Position numbers and translations under genes: made by a program. A DNA stretch of 35,084 nt from Psammoneis japonica. Taxonomy: Eukaryota. The first letter of the stretch is position 1; every line of letters starts with the position of its first letter. Below the pieces are notes generated by a model. The model was not told where the DNA came from. It made no database searches and saw only the letters and a list, made by a program, of their open reading frames with translations. Shown in pieces: positions 1 through 27,243 of the stretch. Location of the stretch: the NCBI GenBank assembly GCA_008632985.1, contig QPGO01000022.1, forward strand, positions 744,001 through 779,084, given 5' to 3'.

Positions 1-1019
1 GCATTGTTGACAATCAAGCAAATCAGCCAAGTGGGAAACTGGGCTTGATGAAATCTGGTTTGACTGTGCAGGAGATGGATTTTGCACATCATGTTTGCAA
101 TGCAATCATTGTGAGTGTTGTTGTGTCAACAATTGAGCCAGTTGGCAAAACAGAAACAACAACAAATGACACATGTCACTTGTCAGTTGTTGATTTTAAC
201 AACAGTGCATGTGAACAAATTGCTGACATGGCTCAGAACAACCACACAAATCAATCTCATCCACTCTCTTTTTCATTGGCTGTGTGAGTTTTTAATGGTG
301 TGTCAACTGTTTCTCCTCTGCACACCTTCTTGTTGTGCCTGCTCCCTTGTCTTTGCTCTGTTGTTTCTTTTTGTTCTCCAAACTGTCTTTTGCTGTCCTG
401 CATGGCCTTGCATCTTCTTGATCTTGGGTGTGTTGGTGTTTGTGCTCCAATTGGTGTCATGCTCCTGTTTTTTTTCTTTTTCAACAAGAGTCAGTTTCAG
501 TGCATGTCATTTGTTGTGTGAGGGAGGCCAAAAAGCAATGCCTGCAAGAAGAAAGCACAGAAGTCTCAAGTTTTGCATGTTTGGTTGGCAACCATTTCAC
601 AATGATGTTGCTTTCACTCACCTTTGTGCAACATGACAGTGAGGTGTTTTCTGCACATGCAAGTCATTGTTGCAAGAACATCTCCGACTGTCAAGGATTG
701 GCAAAAAAATCAGTTTTTTGCACCATTCTGAAAGCTGCCTGTTTTTGCACTGCACTTCTGACTGCACGCCTTTCTCATCTCTTTTCTTCATTTGGATGTT
801 GTTCAGCACAGTCCCAGGCTGTTTTTGGGCTTTGTCAGTGCCTTCTTGCAACACTGTCATTGTGCACAGGATGCATCCTGTGTTTTGTGTGGCACCAGTG
901 ACAATGGTGTTTTTTGGCATGATGCCAAGCCAGTTGACCTTGTGATCATTGTCAGCATCATTTTGCAAGTGGCAATTTTGTCAAAAAGCCTTTCACTCAG
1001 TCTCACCCCCCCCATCTCA

Positions 1020-1233
1020 CTGCATGGCTTGCAAACACATTGTTGATGCTGTCAATCACTGCCACCATGTCAGCCAGGTGCAGAAGCTAAAAAGTGAGCA
1101 CAAGATTTGCAACTCAACAGGAGCTGCAAATGCAAACTTGTCACATTGTCCTCAATTGTCAGTGCATCTCCTTTTCACTGTGCAACTTTGTCTGTGTCTG
1201 TCCTGCAAAACCTTCCTCCAAGCCCAATGTTCC
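1020..1233. repeat. Diverged direct-repeat copy of the unit at 2752-2960
   Basis: tgcatggcttgcaaacac...gctgtcaa...ccaggtgcagaagctaaaaagtgag...tgcaaacttgtcacattgtc...cccaatgttcc aligns collinearly with 2752-2960 and 3080-3270. Confidence 0.8.
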
Positions 1234-1239
1234 TTCCCA

Positions 1240-2750
1240 CAAGCTTCAATTGATTGGTCTCATGTGCATCAAGCAAAGGAAAGTGACGCTTGGAATCCAT
1301 GCCACCTGACACCACCACATTGACCACTCCATTGATTCCTGTGGTCTGCATCATCCAACTCTGCCAACAATTGATCATTGTCAGGCCAACCCTTTCTCAC
1401 ATGCCCAACCTCATTGCATTTCCAACATCTTGTCTGCCTCTTCTTCTTGATCTGCACAAAACTTGCATCATCAGGTTTCTTGTTGGCCACACAGGCATCC
1501 AACACCTGCAGTGCCTCCTTGGCTGAATTGGGAAAAATGTCAACCCCAATGTGAGCTGCTGATGTGGATCTTTCAAGACATGCCAATGTTTCTCAGCACC
1601 TTCCATCAGCGCCACTGCTGACAACTTGTTTGTTTGTTTTTTGTCATGGGCATCATCAGCATCCTTGCTGATCCCATTTTTTGGCAATTTCTTCCAGGAT
1701 GATCCTGCCACAAGATGTTTCCACCACTTCAACCAAGCTCATCAACCAACCACAATGACATTGAAGTGCCTCTCTCTTTCACATTGATGAATGAAGACTG
1801 GCTGCTTCCAAGCCTTGACCACCTGGACATGTGGACTTGGGGTCGTCTTCTCATTTGCATCAAACAAAATTGACTCAAGAACATCCAGCAGCACCACCAC
1901 ATTCCTCACTCCTTTGCAACTCTTGTGAACTCTGTTGCTCTTTTTCAAGTTTATGATGAGAGGTCTATGTGCATTGCCTCGCAACAACTTCAAATGCCTT
2001 CACCTTTGGTGTCTTGCAGCAGATTGTGCTGTCTCCATTGTGCACACTCCATTTTGCACAGTGATCACACTCCTTGCCCCAGGTTGCCTTGTCCTCACTT
2101 TTCCAGTGTGGTGACTCCTCCCAACAGATGCACTGGCTTCTTTTGTTTGCTCTCTTGCCTCAGAGATGTCAGCACCTGCATCTCCAGCCCAAAACTTTTT
2201 TCCGACATGCTTGCTGATTTTCCTTGTCATTTCCATGTGACAATCTGCCTGTCATCCTGACTTGGCAATGGTGTCATGCACCCACTCTTTCAAATCTTTC
2301 TTGCTTCTACACTCAGCTCCTGTGTCCTTGCCCATGGATCTTTTCCAGGACATGTGTTTGGGCTTCACAGCTTGCCAGCAGTTGTTGCACACTCTGTCTC
2401 ACCAACCCCACAACACAACCTTGCTGCACCTTCCTTCAGCAGACCCTGAACAGCTTCTTGTTCAACAGCAAGGCCTTTCAGAGATCACTTTTTCACCCTT
2501 GTCTCCAGCTGGCTTGTTTGTTGCCATCTGCAGACACAAGGTGAACTTTTGGAGATTCCCATTGATTTCCCAGCCTTTTCCTTTGGACCAATTGCAACTT
2601 CCCAGCCCTTGTTGCTGGACTTCTCTTGACTTCCCAGCCTTCCAACAACATGCCACTCCTTTGAGTGTTGTGCCATGCCTTTTCAGCTTCTGTGCTGCAG
2701 TTTCATGGCTTGCCAACTGGCACACCTTTGGTCCCACTGGCCCCTGACTC
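1240..2750 (-). mobile_element. Degenerate LTR-retrotransposon gag relic (probably Ty1/copia, diatom CoDi-like)
   Basis: Minus strand ~1383-1427 encodes CWKCNEVGHVRKGWP, a decayed CX2CX4HX4C zinc knuckle. Upstream fragments (TRKISKHVGKKF..GADI, VVLLDVLESILF, KLSAVALMEGA) resemble diatom copia Gag as recalled, not searched. The frame is broken repeatedly. Confidence 0.6.
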
Positions 2751-2751
2751 A

Positions 2752-3388
2752 ATGCATGGCTTGTAAAACACACTGCCAATGCTGTCAACTGCTGTCATCA
2801 TGTTGACCAGGTGCAAAAGCTAAAAAGTGAGTGCAAGACCCACAACTCAATCTGAGCTGTGAATGCAAACTTGCCACATTGTCTGCAATTACCAGCACAT
2901 CTTTCTGCTCCAACTTTGCCTTTCTGTCCCACAAAAACTGCCTCTGACCCCAATGTTCCAACAGTGGCTGAGCATTGCAAGGTTGGTTTTGTGGGCTTGT
3001 GGCCCCCATGTCACATTGTGCAACCCAGCAACTGCAAGCTGAGACAAGCATTGTGGTTTCTGGCAGACCCCAGGCAATGCACTGCCAATGCTGTCAACTG
3101 CCATCACCATGTTGACCAGGTGCAAAAGCTGAAAAGTGAGTGCAAGACCCACAACTCAATCTGAGCTGTGAATGCAAACTTGCCACATTGTCTGCAATCA
3201 CCAGCACATCTTTCTGCTGCAACTTTGTCTTTCTGTCCCACAAAACCTGCCTCTGACCCCAATGTTCCAATGATGGCTGAGCATTGCAAGGTTGGTTTTT
3301 TGTGGGCTTGTGGCCCCCATGTCACATTGTGCAACCCAGCAACTGCAAGCTGAGAGCATTGTGGTTTCTGGCAGATCCCAGGCAATGC
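2752..3388. repeat. Tandem duplication, ~309-bp unit, 2 copies
   Basis: cactgccaatgctgtcaactgc at 2771 recurs at 3080. The copies are near-identical through ...ggcaatgc, and several differences are TA/TG/CA exchanges. Confidence 0.92.
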
Positions 3389-3389
3389 T

Positions 3390-5255
3390 TTAAAAGAGCT
3401 GTGGTTAGACATGACCATTGCAAGATTGATCTTGTGGCTTTGTGGCCCCATGTCACATTGTCTCCAACAGCAGTGGACACTTGAAAGAGTGCAAGGACCC
3501 CATGACAGTGTGCCGGCCAACCAGACAATTGTTTGCAGAGGGCATTGGTGTTCTTTGATGGACCTCAGGCCACACTTTGAGAACTGTGGTTGGGCTTGCA
3601 AGGTTGATCTTGAAGCTGTGTGGCCTGATGTCACCTTCCTTCTAGTGCCCAACAAGAGCAACATGAGAACTCCCAAACTCTAGAATGTGATGCCCTCACC
3701 GTGACTGTGCCAATCAACCAGACAACTGTCAGCAGAAGGCATTGGTGGTTGGTCACAGCACTTTGAGAACTGTGGTTTGGCATTGCAAGGTTGACCTTGA
3801 AGTGTTGTAGCCTGACATCACTTTGTGCCTGACAGCAGCAAACTTGAGAACTTCCAAACTCCAGAATGAAATGTCCCTGCAATGACAGTGCCAACCAACC
3901 TGAGAACTGCAAGCTGAGTGCATTGGCGGTCTTTGGTGCACCCCAGGTGACAGTTTGAGAGCTCTGGTTGGACTTTGCAAGATTGATCTTGTGTTTTCAC
4001 AGTGCCAGCCACATCATGTTGCTTGTCCCCCTGACAGCAGCAGCAAATTAACTTTCCCAACTCCAGAGTGCAGGAATCCATGGTGGTGCCAACAAACAAC
4101 CCAACAACTGCCAGCAAAGTGCATTGGCAGTGTTTGGCAGACCCGAGGTGACACTTCAAAAGGAGCTGTTGGTCAGCAGCCACTGCAAGGGCAATCTTTT
4201 TGTGCATTGTGGCCCTGTGTGAAAAGAGCAGCACACTTGAACTTGCAAACTCCCAAGCAAAACAACCCTGTGATGGTGCCAAGAAACCTGTCAACTGCCA
4301 GAAAAGTGCACTGGTGGTCTTTGGCAGACCCCAGGTGACACTTTGAGGGCTTCTTTTGTGGCATTGCAAGGTTGATCATGTGATGTTTTGGCCACATGTC
4401 ACATTGTCCACTCTGACAGAGAGCAGCGAACTTGACTTGCCCAACTCCAGAGTGCAGCAGTGATCCCATGGTGGCATCAACCAACCCAACATGAACTGCT
4501 GGCAGGGCTCGCCAATGGTTTTTGGCATGTCACAGGTGACACTTTCTTTAGAGCTGTGGTGGGGCATTGCAAGGTTGATCTTGTGGTGCTGGTGCAGCTC
4601 CAGTGGACCCCAGGTGACAGTTCGAGAACTGTGGTTGGACATTGCAAGACTGGTTTGGGGGCATTCTTGTGGCGCCATGTCACCTTGTCCCCAACAGGAG
4701 CAGTCTTGATTTTCCCACCTCCAGAGTGCAAGATCCTGCTGTGGTGCCAACCAACCCAACAACTGCCAGCAGAGGACATTGGCAGTGCTTGGTGGACCCC
4801 AGGCAACACTTTGAGAGCTGTGGCTGGGCATTGCAAGGTTGATTTTGGAGTGCTGTGGCCCCATGTCACCTTGTGCTCACAGCAGCAGACTCTTGAGAAC
4901 TTCCAAACTCAAAAATGAAATGGCTCCATGACAGTGCCAACCAACCTGACAACTTTCAGCAGAGGGTGTTGGTGGTGTTTGGTGGATGAGGGCCCCAGGC
5001 AACACTTCAAGAACTGTTGTTTGATGTTGCAAGATCAATCTTGTGGCATTGCAGCCCCATGTCACTTTGTCCCTGACAGCAGGAGCAAGCAGATTTGCTT
5101 GATGTTCCCAACTCCAGAGTGCAGAGACCCCATGATGGTGCCACAAATGACCAACCTGACAACTGCTTGGTGTGCAGGGCATTGAAGATCTCTGGTGGAC
5201 CCCAGGAGACACTTTGAGATCTGTGATTGAGCATTGCAAGGTTGATCTTGAAGCA
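3390..5255. repeat. Diverged satellite-like tandem array, ~180-208-bp unit, ~10 copies
   Basis: The core motif (c)attgcaaggttgatcttg recurs at ~3416, 3595, 3781, 3973, 4181, 4362, 4565, (4640), 4829, 5025 and 5232. Shared sub-motifs include ccccatgtcac, ccaactccagagtgcag, gtgccaaccaacc and gaccccaggtgacactttgagagctgtgg. Confidence 0.85.
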
Positions 5256-8017
5256 GAGACTGAACTTTTTCTAAACTCTTCAAGAGCAAAACAACCCATG
5301 ACAGCACCAAACCACCTGACAACACCAAGCATGAGGTGCCACCAACTGCTCAATTTTTCAAAGGTTGTTGCATTGCAGTTGTGTGTGTGTCATGCACTCC
5401 TGTCAATGGTGTGCCTGCAGCACATGCATTGTGCATCCCTTGCAATGACATGCATGTCATGTGCCTCATGCAGCTCATCCTGACAAAGAAGAAAGTTTGC
5501 CCATGATTGTTGGGTGACAAATCTGGTGTTGAGCTAAAAAATTGTGGACCTGTTGCACTGTGTGTGCTTCTTGTTCCAGAAAAGGAACCTGTGCATCTTT
5601 GCACACAGTGAGGCAATTTGCGCTGGCACCAAAACAAAGCTTGCCTTTCTCTCTGCTTTGTTGTGCACCCCCTGTTTTTTGCTCATGCATTTTCAATCAC
5701 TGCCCAAAATTCCAAGCAAAAATGTCTTAAATGCAACAACCATTTCCAAACATTCTTTCCAAATGAGGGCCAACTTGGTTGTTGGTTGTTGGCATGCATC
5801 CTTGCCATTCCCAAAGCAATGGTGCAGGTGCCTGGCTGAACCCAAGGACACAGTGGCAACATGCGCTGCTGTGCCATCAGCAGCAATGTCAAGCTCTGAC
5901 TCAACAAAGCAATGCAAAGACAGAAAATGATGCATCAACACACAACACCAAGGTGTTGCATGACATGTGGGAAGCATCACATGGGGCAACAATGCAGGAG
6001 ACAACCACGCAACTTGCTTTGATGCAGACAAGGATGCAGAAGCTTGTTGCATCTTTTTCACCCCCATGATCCACAATTCAAGCCCCCACCTCCACAGTTT
6101 TTTGCCAAATGAAGATGGGCATTTTGTCATTGTGTGTTTTTTGTCATGACTTTGAAGATGACAATGCTGTTGCAGCTCTTGTTGTTGCTGCACCAACATG
6201 ATTCTGTGTCAGGTGTTTTTGCAAAAGAAAATTGCAACTGTCCCACTGCTGAGTGAAATGATGTCCATTGAAATCTGTTCTGGTGAACAAACAGCCAAGG
6301 TGCCAATGGGAGATGGAGGCACATCATTGAGGCTGCACTGAAATTTTTTTGAAAATGTCAATGGAGCACATGTTTGTTGTTTTTGTTGTCAGATGTGCAA
6401 CCAGGGCACAGTGGGCTGTGACAGAGGGGTTCCATTTTGTCACTAAAACAATGGGTTGGCAGATGAATTGTGCAGTGTCCAACGAAACAAAGAGAAACAA
6501 ACCTGCCAGTGCAAATGCCCAAAAATGCAGGAAAAGGGTGACCAAATGGAAAGGTCTTTTAACCAAGTAAACAAATTCTCAACAGGGTCAAACTTTGCAA
6601 AATCAACAAGCATTGCACATTTGATGGCATTGCAGCCATCATCTGTGTGAGCATCAATTGTTGCAAAGAAAAATCCAGGTGTGCAGCTTCAAACAGACAA
6701 TCACAACAATGAAGCTGTTCACAATTCAAATGACAGAACAAAGCACAGTTGACATTTGCAAAAATTGTGCATCAGTGGAAATTGTGGTCACAAATGTAAA
6801 AGTTGCAATCATTGTCCATTTTTCTTGTTCTTGTTGAGCATGGAAACACACCACAGATGCAAAATGTGTCCAAAGCAAGACTCAGCAGAGTCAAGCAAGG
6901 CTTTGACAAAGTGCACAAAAGTGGCAAAAGGGCTGCTGGCTGGCAGCTGCTCAGTGGAGGCTTGGTTTTCTGGGCTGCATGGGCTCAATGATCTCAAAGA
7001 AGCTGCCACATTTTGCAAAGCATTGTCAAGGCAAATGACCCCACCTTGCACAGCTTTAAGATGTTTGTGGTTTGAACCATGCCACTCTCTGCTCAGCAGT
7101 GCTGCTCTAAATTCATGCTTTGGATGTGACACAGGATCTTCAGCATGAGCATGGAAAATCTGTGTTGCAAGCAAATCAATGTTCTTCACATGCATTGCAA
7201 GGTGCTGCAAGCAGCGCACATTCTTGCAACAAGTTGTGCTGCCACCACTGTGCACTTGGATCCTCTCAATCATGTCTCACAGCAAAGAGAAAGTGTGCAC
7301 CACTGTCAGGGGCTGTGCATTCATGGACAGGCCTTTGGACACAGAAGGGCATTTTTTTTTAAATGACAGCACCTCAGCGCAGTGGGGTCCTGCGCTGTGC
7401 TGTGGCATTGTGTGCAAACAACTGTGTGTTTGGGCCATGCCAGGCAGGTGTGCATGCTGTGTGCTGTGCAGAGTCTGTGTGGCATGATCACAGGAAAAAA
7501 GCAACCCTTGCCCCGCCAGTCCAAAGCCCCACTTGTGGATCCAATTTTGTCAGAGAACAGTGTGCTGAAAGAGCAGAGCTGAGAGCAAGGAGGAGTGAGC
7601 TGCACCAATGAGGCACAATGCACTCACCAGTCTCTCCTGACCCAAGTTTGACTTCAAAACAAAGGGAGGAACAAAACAGGAAATGTGTGTGCACCCCTGG
7701 GTCTCTGACTTTGGCTTTTTGACATCATGTCACACACTGAAAGCAAATGCCAAGCAGGAGCCAGGCCACAACAAGGTTCTGTGTGCTGCTTTGCTCCATG
7801 GTGCAGCTTTTTAGCTCATGTTGCACTCACATGTCCTGCAACAAAAGGTGGAGGAAAGTTGCTGAACATGGAGCACATCTCACAGGGGAAGGTGCTGCAC
7901 ACTTGCAAGCTTTGACCTGCATCAGGCAAAAAAGAAAGCACCAAGCAAAAAGCATGCTGCAATGAGATGCAGTGCAGCAGCAAGTTTCTCTCCATGTTGT
8001 GTGCTGGTGCAAGAAGA

Positions 8018-8019
<2 letters not shown>

Positions 8020-8076
<57 letters not shown>
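8020..8076 (+). repeat. Poly-G tract (~57 G)
   Basis: Uninterrupted G run read directly. The length may be unreliable in the assembly. Confidence 0.9.
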
Positions 8077-8077
<1 letters not shown>

Positions 8078-8729
8078 GCTGCCTGGGTGTGGAAAATGTA
8101 AGAAGATGCTGCTGACTGGGAATGGCATGACAACCCACGTGCTGTGCATTTTTAGCTCTGTTTTATGCCACACTAAAAGGAGGCACTGAGCAGGAAGTGG
8201 ACCTCAAAATGAGGTGCTATGCACTTTGGTTCTGAGTCATGTGCAACCAGCAGAGAAGATCGACGAAGCTGGACATCTGCTCTCCCAAAAGCCCACAAGC
8301 AAAACGAGAAATTCCTTTTTGCGTGGACATCCAAAGTCACTTGTGTGCAACACGGACGCATGAACTTAAGTGGTTGATGCACTGCAGGTTGGCCATGATT
8401 TGATCAAAATGTCTAACATTTTTTCATCACCTCCCACGCATTCCGTCGCAGCAGTCGCCGGGTGTTAGAAATGAGCCACGGCCTCAACAGAAGACATGTC
8501 GTGATGTAAAATGTCCTCGGAACGGATTAATGATGCGCTTTCACATGGCAGAGCTGCGGTGATATGATCATCGTCCCTTCCTCTGGACAGAGATTCTTGA
8601 CGTTTACTTTGAAAAAGCCGAAACGTGAGCTCATCTAGGTATGGTTTACGTGATTCGTACGATTGACTGGTTCGAGGTAGTACCGGTACTGTATGATGCT
8701 TTCGTGTTTCTACGAGATCGTTCTTCAAT

Positions 8730-9509
8730 CTACTGCAGCATCTCAAACGACCCACTACTGGATGACCACCGACAAACTAGAGTCACTCGAAATTCTGCCA
8801 AGGCGATGCCAAAGTGCACCAAGAGCTTGCATTGTTCCGCGGATAATGTCGCACCCTCCTTACAAAGCAAATGTTGCGTCTTTCCACCGACGAGTACAAG
8901 TCTTCCATTTTGAACTTCCACGGGTAATCCTAGTTTTCGAAACTGATCCACCATGGAGACCGGGTGGGACCCTACTAATTCCTGAGAAATAATGACTTGT
9001 CGAGGAGAAATCGAACCAGCTCTGGCAAAATCTTGTTGGACCATGTTTTCAAAGTATGTCTCCACTTCCTCACATGGCAGTGACGTCGAAAGCAATCCAA
9101 CACTACCAGTTACCAGCTTTGAGACTCTCCTTAGGTTTTCTCCGTATTCTTCTTCCGGTGTTCTTCCGAGGGCAATCTGTAATAGTTTATTCTTTCCTAG
9201 GAATATTCTTGATTCTTTCCCCTCCATGTCTGGCTTGCGAAAATGCATGCGAATATCCTTGAACTTGTTGCTTCTCATATTTTCGTACGAGAATAGATAC
9301 AACGTATCATGTTGATCAATAGCATCGCGCACATCTTGAATGACTGATGCCTTGTGCTCTTTCGTCTTCTTTGACGTTTGCGTCAAGGACACTACACAAA
9401 ATGTGATGAAACACGACAAATATTAGCGTTTGCGGAAGAATGAGTCTGATCTTTGAAGGATGACTTTCAGTTTGCACCTACCGACTTTGACTCGTTTAGA
9501 CCTCGGCAT
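8730..9509 (-). CDS. MRT4: mRNA turnover protein 4 / 60S ribosome assembly factor Mrt4 (uL10 family); exons 9509-9482 and 9391-8730
   Basis: The spliced N-terminus [18 protein letters not shown] is the typical Mrt4 start. Other motifs are [40 protein letters not shown] and LSAEQCKLL. Intron 9481-9392 (GTAGGT...TAG, 90 nt) restores the frame. Confidence 0.95.
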
Positions 9510-9763
9510 GGTTTGGCAGCACAAAGTTCCGACAATGTGTTGCAACACGTACCGGTAGTATAGTAGTTGAATGATGATGATATCACAAGCTTTGAATCGG
9601 CGGCAAGTTTTGGTTTCCGAAAACGCAAAAAATGGGTGGAGATGAGAATGGGCACGTGTGAGGGACGGACAAATTGGCGCGCGATCTTTCAAAAATAAAA
9701 TCCTTTTTTCGTGACTGAATATCTTTTTATTCAAAAATGTTACCTTGGCCTCACGATGACGCC

Positions 9764-9865
9764 GAACAAGACAATGATGAGGTATGAGGTTATCTGTGAG
9801 ACGGAAGGCGTCTGCGTAGCAACACTAAAAGTAAAAGATACAGACATCATAACTGATTCTTGTTC
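9764..9865 (+). ncRNA. Candidate box C/D snoRNA
   Basis: Box C ATGATGA at 9774-9780 and box D CTGA at 9853-9856 are closed by a perfect 8-bp terminal stem (gaacaaga 9764-9771 / tcttgttc 9858-9865) with canonical spacing. There is an internal hairpin agacg-gaagg-cgtct. No target was identified. Confidence 0.55.
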
Positions 9866-9982
9866 TCACCTTGCTAACTCATAGGGCTATGTCACAGCGA
9901 ACGATTTTGAGACCACTCACGCCTCACTCCTGACACCCGACACCACAAGGTCCGACACAGATCAAATTCCGATACAGATACG

Positions 9983-10960
9983 ATGCAGATCTTTCATCTA
10001 GGAGCATGCCTACTACTGTTGTGTACGTTTGGACGTGTCGCTTCTGACTCTTCCTTCCCCTCGTGTCCGACAAACCCTCGACGACCGCAAGCCTATGGAC
10101 GTATCTCGAACGAAGAGTTTCTCCTCACGCCGGAGCAGATCGAAGCCTTCCGACAAGATGGATGTGTGACCGTTCCCGACGTTCTGACTGAGGAAGAAGT
10201 TCACGAGCTAGAAGTAATCTTCGATAAGTTTTTAGATGGCACAATTCCAGTTCCCGGAAAGGATTTCTGTGACATGTCCAAGCCGTTCGGCATTCCACCA
10301 GATCAGTGGTCCATTGTCAATTGCATGCTTCCTACCCGGTACTATCCTCCGATGCAGAACAATGTGTACGAAAAACTGACAGCGTGCATGGCGAGACAGC
10401 TGTTTCCAACTTCAGACATGACGAAAGACTACGATCAACTCCTTAACAAGCGACCGGGGAAGTCGGATGCGGTTTTTGCGTGGCACCAAGACATGGGGTA
10501 TTGGCCAGGCTCAACAGTACTGGGAGTTAAAGAAACTGACACTTGCACGTTCTCACTAGCGATTGACGACTCCGATGAGAAAAACGGTTGCCTAAGGTAT
10601 GTGCCAGGTTCAAATTTGGCCAAAACACTGAGAAGGCATGATCCTCTTGTTGGTAACTCTCGTGATGAAGGACATGCGTTGACCATTCAAGTGGGTGAAG
10701 ACGAAGAGATACGACTGGCGCCAGCCAAGCGAGGAAGTATCACGATTCATGACGAGTACGTTGTGCACGGTAGCAGTGGGAACACCTGCACGAATCGTCA
10801 AAGAAGAACATATGTCCTAGCATTTCGTGCTGGAAAAATCGTAGAGGCGGAACGGAGAATTGGCTTTACGCATTCCCATAACGACGACGTTAATTGGGAT
10901 ACTTTTAATGATGGGGAAGATCACCATCTTAACGATGGGGATACCGAGAAACGAAATTGA
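9983..10960 (+). CDS. Phytanoyl-CoA dioxygenase (PhyH) family Fe(II)/2-oxoglutarate dioxygenase with N-terminal signal peptide
   Basis: Intronless 325-aa ORF. It has the PhyH-like N-motif LTPEQIEAFRQDG, an HxD in WHQD, NGCLRYVPGS, a distal His in VHGSSGN and an RRT 2OG-binding Arg. The N-terminus MQIFHLGACLLLLCTFGRVAS is hydrophobic. Confidence 0.88.
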   Translation: MQIFHLGACLLLLCTFGRVASDSSFPSCPTNPRRPQAYGRISNEEFLLTPEQIEAFRQDGCVTVPDVLTEEEVHELEVIFDKFLDGTIPVPGKDFCDMSKPFGIPPDQWSIVNCMLPTRYYPPMQNNVYEKLTACMARQLFPTSDMTKDYDQLLNKRPGKSDAVFAWHQDMGYWPGSTVLGVKETDTCTFSLAIDDSDEKNGCLRYVPGSNLAKTLRRHDPLVGNSRDEGHALTIQVGEDEEIRLAPAKRGSITIHDEYVVHGSSGNTCTNRQRRTYVLAFRAGKIVEAERRIGFTHSHNDDVNWDTFNDGEDHHLNDGDTEKRN

Positions 10961-11516
10961 CCGTCTACGCAACCTCCACGGCGTACGTTGTCACTGTGAC
11001 GAGAGGTCTCCTCTAACTATATGTGCCATTTTAAGTTGAGTTACTACCCCGACTCTGTTGTCGAAGAGTCCAATCTTGCGTGCTATCTAGTGCTAGTCGA
11101 CCTCCGAGACTCCAGGACGTCGATTGGTAGTTGGTATCTCAGCGTCGCACCACCAACTTCAGAAATCCCGATACCTGAGTAGATCCATCAGTAAGTGGAG
11201 GCGTGTTGAACTGCAAAATAAGTAGGTAAAGCTTGAGCCTCGGAAGAAGCCTTTTCATATTTTGAAATGAAATATCATCAAAACGTCGCGTTTGTTCAGT
11301 GATGACTTGTTCTCCTCTCTAATTGTGTCGTACAGAATCAATCGACGAACCAGAACTTTTCGCATGGTAAATTGGATATTGGTGTTGATGTCGGGTCTTC
11401 AGAGTTTCCATCCGGGAAAGGCAAGGAAGTCTCTGTTGTCAAGCGGTTGAGTCGATCTAAGAAAGAAGCTAGTGGAACAGATAGATACCGGTCAGTAAGA
11501 TCGAATGACGACAATT

Positions 11517-12850
11517 CTATTTTCTATCTGCGTCCAACATGGTCTTCGCAATGTACTCTGCGGTTCTTTCGCACTTTGGAACACCTTCTCCTTGGGCATA
11601 ACATGCTACAACGTTTCGCCACCCTTCCACGCTACCGAGTTCACCCGCCCATTGATAGAGTTCAAACGCTTTGGACTGGTCTTGCTTAATTCCCTCGTGC
11701 TGTCCCCGGTGCAGCATGGCCCCGGCAGATACAGCGGCATCAGCATTTTTCCTTTTCGCAGCTTCCATGAAATCTGACAATGCCATTTGGTAGTCTTGTG
11801 CGTATCCATCCTCGCCATGATAGTAGCAATGGCCGCGAAGGAAGAGGGCGTCTGGGTCTCCAACTGCAGCAGCAACGTCAAGTCGACGCACAAACTCAGC
11901 CGGTGTGCATGGTAAAATACCCAGTTCATCACGCCCATTACGATACAGCAATGCAAGATAATAAAGGGCCCCGCCATGACTAAGGTCGGCAGCCTTCTGC
12001 ACCAGATCAAATCCCTCGCGAACCTGCGAATCCTGATCCGACGTATGACTCGGATCATCGCTAGATAGGAAGTGCACCCCTACAAAGTACATGGCATCTG
12101 GATCGTTAAGTCCTATGGCACGCTCGAATGCTTCCATAGAACCTCTCCTATCTGGATCAACCACGGTGTTGACGTGAACCTCAGGGTGACTATCCGATTG
12201 AGGATACCCCGTCCAAAGCAAGTGCCCCAAGTTGAACCATCCTTCAGCGGCACCACTCTTTCCCGCCATTTCATATAAATGCAACGCTTCTCTCACTAGA
12301 GACTCAACATTTTCCTTATCATTCCCCGATCCTTTTTCGGTTCTTACATTGGCTTCGTCAAGAGCGGTATTTCCGAGGCGGACAAGGGCTTTTCCGTGCC
12401 CGTGTTGGAACGCTGCTTGCTCCATGAGCTCTTTGGCGACCATTCTCAATCTTTTCTCCTCTCCTTGCTCATTCACAAGTTCCTTCTCTCGCTTCGTTTG
12501 CCGAGCGATAGTTTTCACAACAGCCACCCCTTCACTCAGCGATGGTCTTTCTTGCGCTCTTTTCCATGCTTGAAATTGCTCTTCCGACTTTTCCTCCTCT
12601 CTGTCTCTTCGAGTGCCTCTGCCGCCTCTAGAGCATCAAGAGCACGTTTGTAAAAATCATCACCACTTGCTTGGGTTTCATCCAGCTTCGACGATTCTTG
12701 CTCAAAATCAGAACTAACTGAGTACCGCTGTGCAATTTTCATTGGATGAAGTTGTGCTTCCCTCCATCCTGTCCTCGATGATAACTTTCGTGTTGAACTT
12801 GTAAGTACAACATGGAAACGTGTGCACAAGCTCACAGGTGGGAACTTCAT
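11517..12850 (-). CDS. Sel1-like repeat (SLR/TPR) protein, possibly mitochondrial; one apparent frameshift near 12590
   Basis: Multiple SLR motifs: AAEGWFNLGHLLWTG, DPDAMYFVG, HGGALYYLALLYRNG, DPDALFLRGHCYYHGEDG, KAFELYQWAGELG and ACYAQGEGVPK. The 5' ORF 12850-12536 joins the main frame (…KSEEQFQAWKRAQE…) if one base is added, e.g. in the T4 run at 12589-12592. The N-terminus is Arg/Ser/Thr-rich. Confidence 0.82.
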
Positions 12851-13150
12851 GTTTTCGACCTCGTTAAATTCTCACAGCGCAGGGCAGCGCTACATTGCGG
12901 TCCACCCAACCATGCCATGTGCCATGGGCCATGGCGCCAACTCAGACCTCCCCAACCCAGAACCCAGACCAAAGCCAGCGCAATGACGACTCACTCGATT
13001 AAAATGTCTTCTCAGGGCAATAACTGCTCTGCGCAACACCACCGACCTCGAGACCAGGACCGACGGACTGACGCCAATGGCGCAAAGGACGATTGACGAT
13101 ACGAAACTAGAACGCTACACCGACACAGAAACCTCAGAAGAGACAGCGCA

Positions 13151-14648
13151 ATGGCGGAAGTATTTCTTACAGAATTATGGCCGTCTCTATCACAACAAGG
13201 ACGCGACGACGATCCTCAGACGCACCTGAAAAAATTGCGGCGTGAAGTGGACCGAGCACTTTGGGAGAAGAACGATCCGTCGTGCAGTCCTTTTGAAGCT
13301 GCTTGGGCTGCTCATCGGCTGTTACAGGATGACGTCGTTCTACAGCACTTGGAGTGGAGCCGACGATTGGCGTGTTTACTGCTGTTAGAATCGGTAGCCT
13401 GTATGGGAAGCCAGGGACGAGCTGCCGAGGACAGTGCGTTCTTTCCGATGATCGTACATCACTTACTGGAACTGCTCATACCTCGCCCGGCATCGGCGGA
13501 TGATTCTGATGCCGACCGCGTCTGTGTAGAGATATTGCTTGAATGTTACCTTCTCCCAATGCTGGGTGAAGACTTGTACAATAAGTTTTCAAAGCAAGTA
13601 CAACAGGGAGAGAATAACATGGACAACGATGTGATTGCTGAAGTGGAAGAGGTCTTGGAACAGTGGACGGGTATTGACGTGAAGGAAAATTTCATCAACC
13701 CTCTCGATTGGGTCACGTCAAACGACGGGAAGGAGGCCTTCAAACATCTCTTTGAAAGGTCTTCCCTGGAGTCAAAATCAGATTCACTTGCTAAGTCATT
13801 GGAGCCCCACTGTCCTGGTGCTCTCCCTCGAGTCTCTTGCCGAAAACATCTTCGGATCTAGCTACCATTCAATTGAATTCGCGAGAACGAAAGGATCTAC
13901 TCAGATACCTTGAACAAGAACTTGCGTGGGTCTCACCAGCACTACAGAATTATATTTCATCAACCAACGAGGACGAACAGGAGGTTTTGAAACTCCTGTC
14001 GGTAGATTCGTTTGCAGCCCCTCTCTCTCCGGACGAAGAACGCAAGGTACTGGCTGCCCTTGTCGCGAAGGAGCAACAACAAGAGGCTAAATCCTCAGTC
14101 TTGTAAAGAGATCGGGTCTGACCCCTCAGACTTTGCCACAGTTGGTAGAGCACAACCCTCTTGTAGCTTACGAGTGCTTGCTACGGCTTTTGTCAACTTG
14201 TCCAGATGAAGTCAAGAACGAATACTTGTCTGCTCTCGTCGGAATGGACATGAGTTTGCACAGCATGGAGGTTGTCAATCGCCTAGCAACGCAAAATAGC
14301 GATCAAGATGCCCTGCTTCACCAGGAATACATTCACTTGTACATTTCCAACTGCATCGCCAGTTGTGAAAACATTCAAGACCGCCACGCCCAAAATCGAT
14401 TAGTTCGCCTTGTTTGTGTGTTCTTGCAGAGTCTCATTAGGAATCGAATTGTCAGTGTTGAGGTACGTCATAAGTGTTGTGGAATCATCATGTTCTGATT
14501 GTCAGCCTTGTCACACAGTTGTTGAACGCTTACGTTCTTGCATTTTTGTTTCGACCAGGACTTGTACTTTGAAGTTCAATCTTTCTGCATTGAGTTTTCT
14601 CGAGTACGCGAGAGTGCTGCTCTGTACAAACTACTCAAAACAATGTAG
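13151..14648 (+). CDS. CNOT11: CCR4-NOT transcription complex subunit 11; intron 14463-14558; two apparent frameshifts (~13805, ~14090)
   Basis: The conserved C-terminal domain reads [18 protein letters not shown]…[14 protein letters not shown]…[35 protein letters not shown]. After the GT-AG intron it continues [29 protein letters not shown]. Confidence 0.92.
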
Positions 14649-15223
14649 CACTCTGTTGCAGTGACTCTGTTGCAGTGCGGGACGGGAAAGGTCACAAAGC
14701 CTCTAACTGATAGCATGCATACTAAACTAGTATATGAACTGCGAGAAATGTTCGACCGAGAGCCTCTTCTGTCATTTTTCTACAGACAGTTGGTTCTCAC
14801 TCTTAGTTTTCCTGTGATGCCCTGACGGTGGGAATAGACGATGAATTTTAGAGAAATCCCTCACATCCTTGCTCAATGGTTCTTCCCTTCATATGAAATA
14901 TTTGTTCCACACCTTGTCTACGAAACGACGGAGATTACTTGTTTGCTTTAGCTTGGCTATCAATTTTGTACTATGGAAGCATCAAAGAAACTTCTTTATT
15001 CCATAGTAGCCTGAAGCTTTAGCCACTGCAAAGGTACAAGTTGTTTCTGGTTGTTGTCTCCACCTTTAGAGTTGTACCAGAAACGTTGGAGACATGTACT
15101 CCGAAGTATCTATCTACGGTACGAAAGCAGCTAGCTCATTATTGATAATCCTAGGTTTATCTTTGAGCAACAAAATAACTAATCATACGACTACATATGC
15201 CAAGGAAAGCAAAAACAGAAACC

Positions 15224-16694
15224 CTATTTTGTTTTGGCAATGCCACAGTCAAGAATTCGACGAACTCGTTTTAACGCCTCTTCTCCGGCGCAGGCGTCAT
15301 GACGATTGTCGTCGACGGCAGCATGCTTCTGCAGCAGCCTAGATACAATGGTTTTCCATCCAGGATCTGTGGGAGGAGAATCTCCCACATGAAAGCCTTG
15401 TACATAAGGACAGTAGTAGCGATGAGAAGCTTGAGGGTCCATTGCACCCTCCTTCTTATATACGCGTTGTTTCTTCGTTGGTCGCGAAGAGAGTTCGTCT
15501 CTACGGGGATTGGACTGTGAACTTCTCATGGGAAGCGCTTCCGTGCTTTGACCGGTTGTGCGTGGCTGTAACTCGGCGACAGCCAAACAAAGATCACACC
15601 GAACTGAGAGCGTGGGTAATTCTGTCGATTTTCGATTGTCGGCTGATCCAACTGGTAGCCACCCAAATAGCGCCAATAGCGCAAGAAACTTTGACGTTGA
15701 AAAGCCTTTTTCGTCGCCCATTCCCAGAATACTGCATATCCTTCTTAGAGAGGGAAGCTCCGCATGCACGGAATCTTCGACAAGAGTCTTTGGACCAGAT
15801 ACTGAGGATGAGAAGGATTCGAAATGCTTCGGAATTGACACATGTAAACCCTGATCATTATCTCCCTCATCCGAAAGTGCAAGTGAATTTCCAAGTACGG
15901 CTATTCGTTGTTCTAATAGCATCTTCGGGTCGGGAGCTTCCAGAAGTTGCAGAGTTTCTTCTGGTAAAACATTGGCGAAGCACGTCGGAACAGAGGCGCC
16001 TTGCATTGGTATTGCCGGGCATGTCAACAAATATTGTTCTGCGTCAAGCCGAAAGGGGCAGTCCCTTGCGTGAGAGAAACCAAGTCGCTTCTTGTAAGTA
16101 GCACAGAGCGATTCAACGCCTTTCCTGCTCAAGTGAGGAAGGAAGGTCACGGCGACTGATGCATGGCAATCGCAGGTCAACAAGTCAGGACCGGCGTTGC
16201 TATACCTGTGCAAGTGCATACGTTGAACACGCACAAAGTTTGAGTGAGTTCAAAATGAAGTCATGTAGGTCTGTGTGTAGCTTGTACATCCACGAGTCTC
16301 CGGAAAAAAGTACAAGTTTGGTGGGCGCAAGGCCTCGGACCACGAAGTTGAAAGCTTCTACGATGTTGGTGATGTATGAGCGACCGAGGAGCCACGAGAT
16401 AGAGAGGCTACCCAGCACAAACAAACTATTGCATCCCGTTGCGGATCAAGTTCTTCGTGCGTCTGTTTTCACTTACCCAAAGCGAGCAGCGACCAAAGGG
16501 GACAACGTCAACGGCTTGGCGAAGTACCACGATGAACGAAAAGTCCTCAGTCGTTCTTCGTATTTATCCCGACAGCCTTGTAAATCTCGGTTTATCTCCT
16601 TCGTTACTGATTCCCATAGTGACAAAATTTCTTTCTCGGGAGCATGGGGAGCGTCCGATGGGTTAGACTTCTTGGGTGATTCCTCGACGGCCAT
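15224..16694 (-). CDS. NIPA/ZC3HC1 (Rsm1/Pml39-like) C3HC zinc-finger protein; exons 16694-16477 and 16205-15224
   Basis: The spliced product gives the zf-C3HC module ERLRTF..WYFAKPLTLSPLVAARFGY…LLTCDC…HARDCPF. A second module reads LALFGW…VRCDLC…DPQASHRYYCPY. Intron 16476-16206 is GTAAGT…CAG. Confidence 0.82.
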
Positions 16695-16779
16695 GGTGCC
16701 GCTGTAGCCTGTGTCATGGTGGAAGAGGGACAGAGGACAGAACTGTGCGATGGCGATCGATGGACGAACCAAGAGACGA

Positions 16780-17120
16780 GCGCATCGAGCGCGCGATCGA
16801 TAGATAGGTAGATCGAGCGATCGCGACGCTCGCGCGCGAAGATGATTCCCTTCTTACTTCTGGCTTTGCGAGTGATAAAGCGTAAAAAATAATGTATACT
16901 ATGGAATATTAATATTCTATATAAATTTTAAATAGGGCAAGCCCATATAACATTTTGCCGTTGAGAACTTGAGTTCGACATTTTTACTCGTATAATTAGG
17001 GATAATTATCCTTCGTTCTTAATAACGCATACATCATGAAATAAATTAGAATTTGAATACAACTATAAAGTTTTAAAAAGAAAGTTGAGCTCAACGGTCA
17101 AAATTGGATATCTATACGAG
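16780..17120. promoter_or_regulatory. Divergent promoter region: CG-rich quasi-palindrome followed by an AT-rich island
   Basis: It lies between the head-to-head NIPA-like and giant-protein genes. 16780-16840 reads cgagcgcgcgatcga…cgagcgatcgcgacgctcgcgcgcg. 16883-17120 is strongly AT-rich and contains the palindrome gaatattaatattc. Confidence 0.4.
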
Positions 17121-17369
17121 CGATAGTGACTCATTTGAAAGGCTGCTAACAGTTATCCTGTGAAATGATCTTCATTAAGCGCAGGAGATATTTAATAATT
17201 TTCAAATGTTCACGGCGAATTCGAATCAAACTGTGGTCATATTTTGCGGGACCCGGGGTGCTTTTCAACCGCCGCACCTCCAAAACACAAAGACCAGCAA
17301 CTATTCTCACAATAAAAACAACACCATACTTTTTGCCAAGCGCATCGAAGCCTACCGGCATCAGACACC

Positions 17370-20300
17370 ATGCGCTTCGCCTACGCATACCCGCTGATCG
17401 TATGTCTAGCGACGGGAGCTGTAGCCGAATTCGAAGTCGGAAGCCGAGATGCCCAGCATACCGAGCGAAGACGGCTGGGAATGATGGATTTTTTCAGAAA
17501 AGCCGCATCTTGGAAGATACCAGTAGCGGATTTGTTGCGTACGGGTGATAAAGCGGCGATGGATCGCGAGCTTCAACAAGCAACGTGTGCGCCGACACGA
17601 TCACCCACCCTGCATTACTTCTGGCCAACTTCGGCGCCAACTGCGGCGCCAGACGAGCAAGATAGAACCCCAAGCCCTACCGTTGCATGGTCTGATGATG
17701 AAACTCCAAGTCCTACCCCCAACGCCCCTGACATTACTCCAGATCCAACGACCGCCCCAACACCGTCTCCCACTCCGCCACCTACACCGCCAGTTACGCC
17801 GCCGCCGACGCCATCGCCGACGCCATCTCCAACGTTACCACCGACGCCGCCACCGAGCCCGCAACCGTCGCTTCCTCCGACACGGCAGCCGACAATTCCG
17901 GTAACAAAGTCGCCAACGCCGGCTCCGACGTCAGGCCCCACACCACCGCCGACACCTACCCCAACGATGAGTCCTACACCTGCACCAACTCCTGCTCCGA
18001 CTCCGGCACCAAGCGTATCCACTCCAGACACAACCTCGGCGCCGACAAAAACGCCTACCAGTTACCCGTCTCCATCACCTACTTTACCGGTGGAATGCAT
18101 TGTGGATGTAAGTGATATCCAGACATGATCTACTTGAACTATTAATAATGCTCAAACATTCCTGTCCATTTTTTTCAGGTTGAACTGGACTGCGTCTCAA
18201 CAGACGATAACACTCCTTGCGATGAAATTGAACAACCCCCACCCCAATGCGTTGATGGCGGCGACCTCACGGAGTTGATGTTCAGGCTGGACGTGCGCTC
18301 ATGCGCAGACAGCTTCAACTCTCAAGGTACCGATGCCACATGTACAGAAGAGGACGGTCAACCTACTGAAGATGCTGAAATTCTGTGTACGAGCAGTGGC
18401 GGAGACACCCTCTTCTATGGAGAAGTGGAAGGAGGTGATACATTTCTTGTTAAGAAAGACGATGGTAGTGCTCTCCCCGAGAAAATTGATTGCAAAATCG
18501 TTAGCACAGACAGCTCAACTTTACAAAGGGTGTCATTCAAAAGTACTGGGAGCTTGCGTCTCAAAGACGAGTTTGGCAGTATGACGCTGGAGAGCTGCAC
18601 CTCTGATGGGGAAACTTCCGAATGTACTAAAGAGGTCATGTACACGATGACCATCGACAATGTGGGGACAGTGGATGTAAACGTCACAGTCGCAGAGGTC
18701 TATAACAACGGCACCGTTAAGGACTTGATTGATCGTGTTCCCGACACGGAATTATCCCCTGGCGAGTCAACGAGTGTAACTGAAGTCCAAAAGGTTGACT
18801 TTTGTGTTTCAGGTGAACACAAGGTGATAGCTCGCGTCGAAGCTGAACCTGAAGGTGGAAAAGAGTGTGAAGCTAGCGACGAGTACGAGTTTGAAACTAA
18901 CCCGCTTCCAGCTCCGCCGCCAAGTACACCACCATCTCCAATCCCCACGGCTTCTCCTACAGCTGCGCCATCTATTTCAAAACCAGATTCAACATTCGTT
19001 CCTACCAACGGACCTACCCCCCCCCGCCCACGCCAAGTCCTACGTTGATGCCTGAACCGGACAGAGAACCAACAAGCTCTCCGACTATTGCATGGTCAGA
19101 CGATGAGACGCCTCCTCCTACCTTTGATGTGCCTGATCAGACTCCTCAACCTACAGTGGAGCCTGTCGAGTGCTATGTTGACGTAAGTGCTTCGTGCGTT
19201 CACAAAGGTCAAAACAAACGACTTGCTGATACCGCTCTCTTATTGTAATTGTTATCAGGTTGAGTTGGATTGCGTCTCAGTAGACGATGGAACTCCATGT
19301 AAGGAAATTAAGCCATCACTAGGTGAGGGTGATGAAGACGGCGACCTCCTTGAGCTGGGGTTCAGGTTAGATGGACGACTATGCGCGGACAGCGTCAATT
19401 CCCAAGGACCTGATGCCACCTGCACGGAGGAAATCAACGGAATGCCCACCGAAGACGGCGATATTCTTTGTACTGGTAGTGGAGGAGAGATTCTTTTTGA
19501 AGGAACCCTTTCAAGAGGCGATACATTTGTCGTTAAACAAGAAGACGGAAGTGCCCTTCCCAATCAAGTCACCTGTTCTCTAGTGAGCACCAATCAGTTG
19601 ACGTCGCAACAGGTTTCATTGAAAACGACAGGAAGTTTGGTTGTCGATGACCAGTTCGGTAGTCTTACTTTGGTCAGCTACACGCAGGACGAGAATGACG
19701 AGGAACCGTCGGACTGCATCCAAGAGGTCATGTACAATATGACCATAAGTAATGCTGGAACAATCGATGTGAACGTTACTGTTGCCGAGATAGACAAGAA
19801 TGGAAACGTGACGGACTTACTTGATCGAGTTCCGGACAAAGATTTATCACCTGGCGAGTCTACGAGTGTCACGGAGGTCCAAACTATTGATTTCTGTGTT
19901 TCGGGGTCATACAAGGCTGTTGCTCGTGTCGAAGCAGAGCCTGACGACGGTGACGAATGCGAAGCTACAGACGAGTACGAATTTGAAACCACCCCACTTC
20001 CCACTGCGCCACCGAGCCTATCACCGCCACCGTCACCTGGCCCAACGTCTCCCCCAACTGCAGCACCAACAATGCCGCAACCTGACAAGACGCCGCCTCC
20101 TAGTGGTGGTCCGACGTCTCCTCCGACTCTCAGTCCAACTTGTGAGCACGACACCCCAAGTCCGACCCCAGTAGACAATCCTGATGGAACCCCGAGCCCA
20201 ACTTTGCCACCACCAACACCGACGCCTCCTCCAGTTGTAGGACCGACGCCACCAACCACGAGTCCAACGATGCCGCCACCGACACCAACGCCCCCCCTGT

Positions 20301-26300: not shown

Positions 26301-27243
26301 CGCCAACGGTGGACCGAGTACCACAGCGGCTTCGTACATGAGGATCACAGATTCAACTGGGGTCGGCATTGTCTACTTTGAAGGTCCCATCTCACCGGGT
26401 GAACTGGTAACGGTTTCTGGCGATGGCTTTGCTGTAGCTTCAGACATTGCAATATCAATTTCTGCTGGGACTGCACCTGGTGGCGTGCAACTGCAGACCG
26501 TTGGCTTTCATACAGGCTGTATCGATTATATGATGTTCTCTTGGGACACCTACGGGTCTACCGAGATTGTTGGCTGGACGAACGAAAGACAAGGAAAAGT
26601 GACAACCCTGCTTGATGCTACCTACAACTACAGGATCCAAAACAATGCTACAAATAGCAACGTCGTCCTTGAATCCCTGGAAAGTACGACAAATGGTGTG
26701 TCAACCGACCTCACCGAGCAAGTGTATGGTCTAATTCTTGGTCCTGGCGGTAGCTTTATTGCAAGGCAACGCGTACAAATTGACCTCACGGAACGGAGAG
26801 AATACACGACCACAGCCGTTGTTACTGCGTTCGTCCCATTGGGGCCAATCTGCGCTGCTACGGATACATTGATCTTTGAGGTTGGAGTCGACCAGCCTGA
26901 CCCAACCTTGCCACCGAAAGTAACCCCTTCTCCCACACCGGGCATACCTGACAAAACCAAGTCTCCCACTTTGCCACCGACTCCATCTCCAACGCCAGGC
27001 ACCCCGGATAAAACTCCATCTCCAACACCAGGCACCCCGGACAAAACTCCATCTCCAACGCCGGGTACCCCCGACAAAACACCATCTCCTACGCCAGGCA
27101 CCCCGGACAAAACTCCATCTCCAACACCAGGCACTCCTGATAAAACTCCATCTCCAACGCTTGGTACCCCCGACAAAACACCATCTCCTACGCCAGGCGC
27201 CCCTGATATGTCCTACAAGTACGACTACTCACCCTGGTGGTAA
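17370..27243 (+). CDS. Giant (~3,130 aa) secreted modular Pro/Thr-rich protein with 7 Cys-rich domains (mucin/adhesin or cell-wall-like); exons 17370-18107, 18179-19182, 19259-20757, 20836-22212, 22291-23595, 23679-24590, 24691-27243
   Basis: Signal peptide [19 protein letters not shown]. Six phase-0 GT-AG introns (71, 76, 78, 78, 83, 100 nt) join the ORF-track fragments. The repeated domain is C..F.....C..S.NSQ...C…LKD.FGSLTL…Y..TI.N.G..DV…LSPGES…C…D.Y.F, separated by PT/PS-rich linkers. Two poly-C frameshifts (19017-19025, 20291-20297) are each repaired by +1 C. The domain may correspond to a diatom-enriched DUF (recalled as DUF7467, unverified). Confidence 0.85.
20506..23480 (+). repeat. 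Near-identical intragenic tandem duplication, ~1,455-bp unit (domain + linker + intron)
   Basis: The intron donors at 20758 and 22213 are 1,455 bp apart and the 78-nt introns are identical. The second copy has one fewer 15-bp PTPTP unit. Confidence 0.93.
26980..27210 (+). repeat. Coding minisatellite, 7 x 33 bp ([11 protein letters not shown])
   Basis: Direct reading of the repeat before the C-terminal [10 protein letters not shown]. Confidence 0.9.

Follow-up and report, generated by a model that had tools for sequence, protein, structure and literature searches.

The deamination of 5-methylcytosine (5mC) is the established fate of methylated CpG, and the vertebrate genome has a CpG observed/expected ratio (o/e) of roughly 0.2. 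In the repeat-induced point mutation (RIP) of ascomycetes, CpA is turned into TpA, so that TpA is enriched and CpA/TpG reduced; RIP acts on duplicated sequence, with limited leakage into unique DNA, and the mutations of one event share a strand. Outside the ascomycetes, a RIP-like hypermutation has been reported in Pucciniomycotina, which acts by C>T at CpG-containing sites in repeats resembling transposable elements and is restricted to TCG according to the available text of that paper (PMC3318451). Diatoms methylate transposable elements at CG through DNMT5, and their DNMT4 enzymes are related to the RIP factor RID and have no known function (PMC9998398, available portion). In another marine algal group, the dinoflagellates, 5-hydroxymethyluracil (5hmU) from TET/JBP homologues is enriched on transposable elements and overlaps 5mC; older reports cited in the same papers gave it a preference for TA and TC, and a base-resolution map of Breviolum found no sequence preference (PMC11572971, PMC11071213, available portions). 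The present work concerns a stretch of 35,084 nucleotides from the diatom Psammoneis japonica (contig QPGO01000022.1, positions 744,001 to 779,084; hereafter the window), in which two domains on either side of a gene island were found to be nearly devoid of both CpG and TpA. No paper describing the joint loss of CpG and TpA from repeats, whether in diatoms or in other eukaryotes, came up in a search of openly readable papers.

The window was found to be divided into the following regions, of which the first and last are referred to below as the flanks:

1-8019, left CG/TA-free domain, extending past the left end of the window, with 23 CG, 27 TA and 1932 TG+CA steps
8261-29403, gene island of ordinary composition, serving as the contrast region
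29404-35084, right CG/TA-free domain, extending past the right end of the window

In 1-kb intervals across 1-8000 and 30001-35084, o/e ranges from 0.02 to 0.09 for CpG, from 0.00 to 0.08 for TpA and from 1.6 to 2.3 for TG and CA; across 9001-29000 the ranges are 0.76-1.29 for CpG and 0.43-0.86 for TpA. When o/e was also computed in strand-symmetrised form for each region, the values for CG, TA and TG/CA were 0.05, 0.05 and 1.93 in the left flank, 0.08, 0.03 and 1.83 in the right flank, and 0.95, 0.64 and 1.13 in the island. At island density the 13,700 bases of both flanks would be expected to hold 811 CG and 552 TA; 51 and 39 were found, a loss of about 94% for each. Over 200 mononucleotide shuffles of the left flank the minimum was 391 CG and 505 TA, as against the 23 and 27 observed. 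Among the pyrimidine-purine (YR) steps, TG and CA account for 0.494 and 0.480 in the left flank and 0.481 and 0.491 in the right, with CG at 0.012-0.020 and TA at 0.009-0.014. The part of the island that lies outside open reading frames (ORFs) of at least 100 amino acids (2,441 bases, likely non-coding) has a CG o/e of 0.95 and a TA o/e of 0.78, and the depletion is therefore confined to the flank domains. It was also observed that GpC is over-represented in both flanks (o/e 1.29-1.31) and ApT under-represented (0.76-0.78), which may reflect a further context-dependent A:T>G:C bias or an ancestral property of the repeats.

An initial annotation, made from the letters alone, had described 1-8260 as a repeat domain with CG and TA nearly eliminated and TG/CA dominant, lying beside genes rich in CG and TA. 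Both halves of this description hold, the second also for island DNA outside ORFs, and flank TpA does not resemble that of intergenic DNA (TA o/e 0.03-0.05 vs 0.78); the effect is thus specific to the domains. The left domain is real, but its limits need revision, as TA loss stops at 8020 and CG loss at 8260, and a second domain begins at 29404.

The flanks appear to owe their composition to single transitions that converted the DNA itself in place, on either strand. The share of YR steps among all dinucleotides is 0.235-0.247 for the flanks and 0.241 for the island, so that transitions suffice to explain the change and the purine/pyrimidine pattern is untouched. Simulated replacement of all CG and TA in island DNA by TG or CA brought G+C to 0.480 and TG/CA o/e to 1.93, which matches the flanks (0.473-0.486 and 1.83-1.93), while the conversion of CG alone (0.440 and 1.63) fails to match them. 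As A>G or T>C lies beyond any cytosine chemistry, a second process is needed for TA>TG/CA.

Repeat copies within the flanks differ from each other by TG<>CA doublets, and the sites were therefore mutated in place after duplication. Pooled over three flank repeat pairs that do not overlap, 16 of 154 aligned YR sites carry such doublets, and the oldest pair by itself has 11 of 52; in four pairs of island paralogs, where the substitution patterns are ordinary, the count is 5 of 645. As controls, the doublets GT<>AC and GC<>AT occur only rarely. Exactly such doublets as TG<>CA result when a single ancestral CG or TA became TG in one copy but CA in its counterpart. A runs test showed that TG and CA follow one another at random (z=0.65 left and z=-1.08 right), and the change is therefore not strand-processive, unlike RIP or APOBEC-type events.

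The loss of TA was found to depend strongly on the following base. Relative to island density, TAA is retained at 0.18, TAG at 0.11, TAC at 0.018 and TAT at 0.020, so that TAC and TAT are about 98% lost and TAA and TAG 82-89% lost; on both strands of both flanks, 12 TAY triplets remain (Y, pyrimidine; R, purine) where 635 would be expected at island density. Of the 39 TA that survive in the flanks, 28 are in the context Y-TA-R, for which 22% would be expected from the contexts of the TG/CA steps (P=6e-11). The simplest reading is that the TA event is TAY>TGY (RTA>RCA on the opposite strand) and proceeds about 10 times faster than at TAR. A TAY bias predicts an excess of YTGY+RCAR products, and this excess is present in the flanks: the count of YTGY+RCAR against YCAY+RTGR is 1082:638, a ratio of 1.70 (P=4e-15), compared with 1.15 in the island, 1.08 in a context-free simulation and 1.50-1.60 in a TAY-biased simulation. 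The same bias shifts GpC up and ApT down as observed, although short of the full amount. For CG, retention is 0.045 for ACG, 0.050 for CCG, 0.054 for TCG and 0.115 for GCG, and the excess of GCG among surviving CG is weak and non-significant.

The borders of the flanks were compared by composition, and contigs of a public sequencing run (X1) were drawn on for the left one. X1 contains 92% of the words sampled from 4500-11500 and is possibly from the same sample as the assembly of the window; its platform is unrecorded. At the left border two features were noted:

8020-8076 (+), run of 57 G, exactly at the end of the TA depletion
8078-8260, border strip of 183 bp, CG-poor with normal TA, rich in TG/CA and joined to the island in an X1 contig

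The strip holds 1 CG where 10.8 would be expected (P=2e-4) and 5 TA where 7.4 would be expected, which suggests either that the CG loss reaches further than the TA loss or that the strip is a different, later insertion. The right border is sharp at 29404 and has no homopolymer. Within its first 947 bases (29404-30350) the right domain has 1 TA site and 13 CG sites, and its CG density there, 13.7/kb, is higher than the 3.2/kb found deeper in the domain (P=2e-4). Since the footprints of CG and TA loss differ at both borders and the context rules differ as well, two processes sharing a domain are favoured over one enzyme. The TAY bias and the differing footprints are details that are new in this analysis. 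As a separate observation, the 57-G run may act as a boundary element or form a G-quadruplex, or it may mark a spot where the assembly is weak.

The depleted letters themselves are reproduced in contigs built from X1 k-mers, which differ from the window by 2 letters over 3326-4771, by 3 over 4799-6755 and by 1 over 6743-8008, at a depth of 61-69 on these depleted contigs (3326-8008) vs 52-57 in the island. The depletion is therefore not an assembly artefact, and the agreement argues against miscalls and against a contaminant. One X1 contig (8087-13767) runs continuously from the CG-poor, TG/CA-rich strip into the island. The poly-G at 8020-8076 is not bridged by X1 contigs, and reads appear to be cut at 8009-8086. 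Polymorphism was considered as a further line of evidence and rejected: 3 of 6 single-contig differences between the window and X1 in the flank involve CG/TA<>TG/CA, and this share equals the neutral prediction, because TG/CA steps cover about 48% of the positions in the flank and any transition within such a step makes CG or TA.

Taken on this evidence, the flanks are probably silent, largely repetitive nuclear DNA in which nearly all self-complementary YR steps have been converted by transitions to TG/CA through two superimposed processes. In the first, CG would pass to TG/CA through the deamination of 5mC in repeats that are presumably CpG-methylated. The second would be a separate A:T>G:C change, strictly specific for TpA, about 10 times faster for TAY>TGY, and covering roughly the same domain. 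An enzymatic modification or deamination of TpA in silent chromatin would be the preferred chemistry for it, either as hydroxylation or oxidation of thymine (of the 5hmU/5-formyluracil type) leading to mispairing with G, or as adenine deamination that yields hypoxanthine. On the assumption of equilibrium in the domains, CG and TA would be lost about 40 times faster than they are recreated by transitions in TG/CA steps (1932/(2x23) and 1932/(2x27)). It is also conceivable, although we put this forward tentatively and with some doubt, that diatom silent chromatin has a putative TpA-directed DNA activity (a double-stranded DNA adenine deaminase or a miscoding thymine hydroxylase) with a TAY/RTA preference, which together with CpG methylation would irreversibly turn all self-complementary YR steps of invading or silenced DNA into TG/CA, as a defence analogous to RIP, evolved independently, with the opposite dinucleotide outcome and a second chemistry that does not involve cytosine. 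We know of no natural adenine deaminase that acts on double-stranded DNA.

The repeat content of the flanks was examined for its bearing on what is targeted. The following features were identified:

668-5336, high-copy repeat family forming part of the left domain, as seen in summed X1 contig depth
996-1233 (+), 2727-2959 and 3076-3268, three copies of a segment of ~230 bp, the first two flanking the zinc-knuckle trace
1272-1592 (-), open frame of 107 amino acids bearing a trace of a CCHC zinc knuckle (weak match to PF00098 at E=0.013, which misses the curated cut-off)
2771-3080 and 3080-3388, tandem pair of 310 bp, 94.5% alike
3388-5345 (+), ten diverged tandem units of ~190 bp, with columns that mix TG and CA and rare surviving TA or CG
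30647-30923 (+), two 138-bp tandem units within the right domain, with 3 TG<>CA doublets in 18 substitutions

Across 668-5336 the summed X1 contig depth is 460-2185, vs ~56 in single-copy DNA. At a likeness of at least 80%, 1172 X1 contigs were aligned, 592 of them less than 90% alike, and in 368 letters from other copies of the family there were, as counted by eye, 3 CG, 4 TA and 79 TG+CA. Over 5337-8004 the depth is 67-109 by the same threshold, against the ~56 of single-copy DNA, yet this part is equally depleted; it could be near single copy, or an old repeat with relatives that have diverged beyond 20%. Targeting at repeats, as the initial annotation had proposed, would suit the high-copy part, but the seemingly near-single-copy part is depleted as strongly, and a chromatin domain would explain the choice of target no less well than repetition. 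Adenine deamination and biased repair, which it had named, stay candidates. Other parts of that interpretation have fared better, since a second process, TG/CA as its products, domain specificity and the exclusion of RIP all stand; its TA-directed process is supported indirectly and is here sharpened to a TAY bias.

The repeats themselves also carry the history of the change. In the young tandem pair, 2 of 79 YR sites are discordant; the 310-bp duplication therefore postdates most of the CG/TA loss, and depleted DNA was still being copied. Copies 1 and 2 of the ~230-bp segment are spaced 1.73 kb apart, resembling long terminal repeats or a long tandem unit, and X1 contigs show joints between the copies (1042>2799, 1118>2860 and 2737>1016). 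These copies are 76% alike in the ACGT alphabet and 91-93% alike in a purine/pyrimidine alphabet, 11 of 52 aligned YR sites between them being TG<>CA, and the tandem units in the flanks are 66-72% alike. The 107-residue frame at 1272-1592 is possibly the relic of a retroelement Gag gene, to judge from its zinc knuckle. It contains no TA at all, and as a working gene needs Tyr codons, the TA-free state would not be original to a coding element.

Searches for further coding traces returned little. Among 124 stop-to-stop frames of at least 70 amino acids from both flanks, none matched Pfam at the curated cut-off, the matches below it being at chance level and only the zinc knuckle above being of note, and a domain search with the twelve longer flank frames gave zero matches. 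For the 107-residue frame, a word-based homologue search gave zero candidates, and a HMMER search against 1.84 billion representatives gave 17 matches at E<=0.001; eight of these were checked against Pfam and 0 had a Gag domain, the proteins having generic zinc-knuckle/RRM domains or unrelated ones. Metagenome matches to a degenerate purine/pyrimidine 26-mer (1404-1429) were set aside as chance, being 5 loci of ordinary composition with no BLAST similarity. BLAST in the purine/pyrimidine alphabet, between the left and right flanks and between flank and island, gave nothing above the reversed-sequence null (top null 142 bits).

Several points weigh against the two-process account. It is drawn from a single window of 35 kb in one diatom genome, and in it the methylation, the base modification and the enzymes are all putative. 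The polarity TA>TG/CA is inferred by indirect arguments, with no intact or less-mutated family member that could be aligned, and the ancestral composition of the repeats was approximated by island DNA that is mostly coding. The 11 of 52 doublets in the oldest pair do not separate conversion of CG only (0.148 expected) from conversion of both (0.207 expected), and the simulations fall short of the GpC excess (1.30 vs 1.03-1.05) and of the ApT deficit (0.77 vs 0.85-0.86). A YCG>RCG bias of the CG process may account for part or all of the product asymmetry. New TA created with a bias, by C>T at YC sites, could be partly behind the Y-TA-R excess, although 28 of 39 is above the 50% ceiling of a model of biased creation only (P=0.005). 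Finally, 97+100 of the 1172 X1 contigs are at least 95% alike to the depleted copy of the window; copying of depleted DNA thus goes on, and the family may in part be spreading in the depleted state.

This last point bears on an account in which the composition is adaptive or inherited, the master copies of non-coding elements or satellites being already CG/TA-free, for example by evading CpG methylation or an RNA sensor of CpG/UpA, and then spreading. These 197 contigs, the tandem pair that was duplicated after depletion (2/79) and the low CG and TA of other family copies are all in keeping with it, and joint suppression of CpG and UpA is known from RNA viruses (PMC5659819, available portion). 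On the other hand, the near-single-copy 5337-8004 and the entire right flank show the same degree of depletion as the high-copy part, older copies show independent TG-vs-CA outcomes at the same sites (11/52), the borders are sharp and positional with a CG-only strip beside the island, and the depleted DNA includes the frame that bears the zinc-knuckle trace. Viral suppression is, moreover, far milder than an o/e of 0.05. Inheritance of this kind is thus held to be quite improbable. A single system, which is unlikely but somewhat less easily dismissed, would consist of one enzyme or complex (e.g. a TET/JBP-type dioxygenase acting on 5mC and T) that recognises the diagonal 5-methyl groups common to methylated CpG and TpA, with 5mC>T and T>C to follow; oxidised thymine would miscode as C. 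Both lost dinucleotides are self-complementary YR steps, they end at similar shares of YR steps (CG 0.012-0.020, TA 0.009-0.014) in domains that nearly coincide, and the dinoflagellate homologues make 5hmU on repeats in overlap with 5mC (PMC11572971, available portion). Yet the borders of CG and TA loss are ~180 bp apart on the left, CG lags over ~900 bp on the right, and the context rules differ, Y-TA-R being spared as against a weak, non-significant excess of GCG; the enzyme is also hypothetical.

That an ordinary mutation spectrum removes CG and TA everywhere, as a genome-wide neutral equilibrium, and that selection keeps both near genes, is very improbable. The flanks do look old and unconstrained, with tandem units 66-72% alike and no Pfam domain in 124 frames, but the 2,441 island bases outside long ORFs have retained CG at 0.95 and TA at 0.78, the borders are sharp within tens of bases, and the island paralogs are ordinary. 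An origin in technical artefact or foreign DNA, whether modified bases were miscalled, the poly-G conceals a chimeric join or another organism contributed the sequence, can be given hardly any credence. The left junction does fall at a 57-G run which X1 contigs leave unbridged, and the X1 platform is unrecorded and its sample possibly that of the assembly; against this, the X1 contigs at depth 61-69 reproduce 3326-8008 with 1-3 differences each, contig 8087-13767 links the CG-poor strip to the island, the right border lacks any homopolymer, and the repeat copies carry a coherent evolutionary signature.

When the two-process account is set beside described systems, its CG half is, judging by composition, a regular though extreme instance of methylation-driven CpG decay, with methylation presumed. 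It shares with that decay the equal conversion of CG>TG/CA on both strands, its location in silent repeats, sharp borders against genes and the depletion of all four NCG triplets (0.045-0.115). It differs in depth, flank CG o/e being 0.05-0.08 as against the vertebrate ~0.2, and TpA, here 39 vs 552 expected, is beyond the reach of such decay. With ascomycete RIP the flanks have in common an irreversible transition mutation of repeated or silent DNA by which coding capacity is destroyed. They differ in that TpA is lost (o/e 0.03-0.05) and TG/CA gained (1.83-1.93), so that RIP indices are reversed; in the lack of strand tracts (z=0.65, -1.08); and possibly in the lack of clear copy-number dependence, as 5337-8004, which may be near single copy, is depleted like the repeats. 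RIP of the fungal CpA>TpA kind is excluded by the loss, rather than gain, of flank TpA.

The TA half has looser parallels. Very-short-patch repair in Escherichia coli is tied to cytosine methylation, acts in the context CCWGG and produces a mild deficit of CTAG. It resembles the present case in that a TA-containing word is lost via methylation-linked T:G>C:G correction, and differs in being bound to CCWGG and mild, whereas the flanks lose 94-97% of every TA across the domain. A>G with a 5' T (U) is also made by ADAR, by polymerase eta and by TadA/ADAT. ADAR makes A>G on the transcribed strand with 5' U or A and 3' G preferred, polymerase eta has WA hotspots, and the natural context of TadA is U-A-C, which resembles the TAY bias. 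Polymerase eta and ADAR, both of which target ApA as well, were rejected as the cause of TA loss because ApA is not depleted in the flanks (AA/TT o/e 1.21-1.25) and a 3' pyrimidine is favoured; ADAR further differs in acting on one RNA strand and preferring 3' G, while the flank change is strand-symmetric. Selection of the type seen on CpG/UpA in RNA viruses needs a working coding sequence, and is not a match since coding capacity is destroyed here (12 TAY vs 635, no Pfam domain at cut-off).

Of the systems that act on repeats of other lineages, the Pucciniomycotina hypermutation differs from the flanks in its restriction to TCG, as ACG, CCG and TCG are lost equally here and GCG about twofold less, and no A:T>G:C component is reported in the available text of the paper, in which "TpA" occurs 0 times (PMC3318451). 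The 5hmU of dinoflagellates is a repeat-enriched thymine modification that gives the thymine route a precedent as a mark, though none as a mutator, and in the available portions of the papers it is an epigenetic mark that is not reported as a mutational signature (PMC11572971, PMC11071213). Co-targeting of TC, as in the older dinoflagellate reports, was considered and rejected for the flanks (TC/GA o/e 0.85-0.96, with no gain of CC), and 5hmU in diatoms was not found in the literature searched.

Should the pattern hold across the genome, it would be the first known to us in which TpA is purged from silent DNA by A:T>G:C transitions alongside CpG decay. It would point to base modification, a deaminase or a repair bias at TpA in diatoms, and a natural TA-specific A:T>G:C mutator on double-stranded DNA would be of interest for base editing. 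The depletion also offers a concrete phenotype for testing the unexplained RID-like DNMT4 enzymes of diatoms (PMC9998398, available portion). In the simulation, conversion of CG and TA alters ~10% of positions and leaves independently mutated copies ~10% different, because of which relics of repeats are under-detected by ordinary searches; the purine/pyrimidine alphabet recovers them, with 91-93% identity vs 76%.

A search of the whole window against Rfam gave zero matches at the gathering score. The predicted products of the island include the 60S ribosomal protein P0, a dioxygenase of the PhyH type, a protein with Sel1 repeats and several DUF7467 proteins encoded in an array. Identity between the dioxygenase and the matches listed is 63-79%, and the organisms named among these matches are nearly all diatoms (e.g. 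Nitzschia, Amphora, Seminavis, Cyclotella and Skeletonema), which places the window in diatom nuclear DNA. A second public run (X2), labelled "DNA?", gave a contig whose splice spans 16203-16473, a minus-strand intron with canonical GT..AG ends, within the feature 15165-16727 (-), and X2 is therefore taken to be RNA. Its contigs span gene bodies from 8710 to ~18000; none matched on 1-8671, which is not evidence of silence there. Five long open frames were observed in 18149-27243 (+), each with a DUF7467 domain. The array has an internal duplication (20274-22111 vs 21758-23551, 93% alike) and Pro/Thr-rich tandem repeats of 15, 33 and 66 bp, features which suggest a fast-evolving family of secreted or cell-surface proteins.

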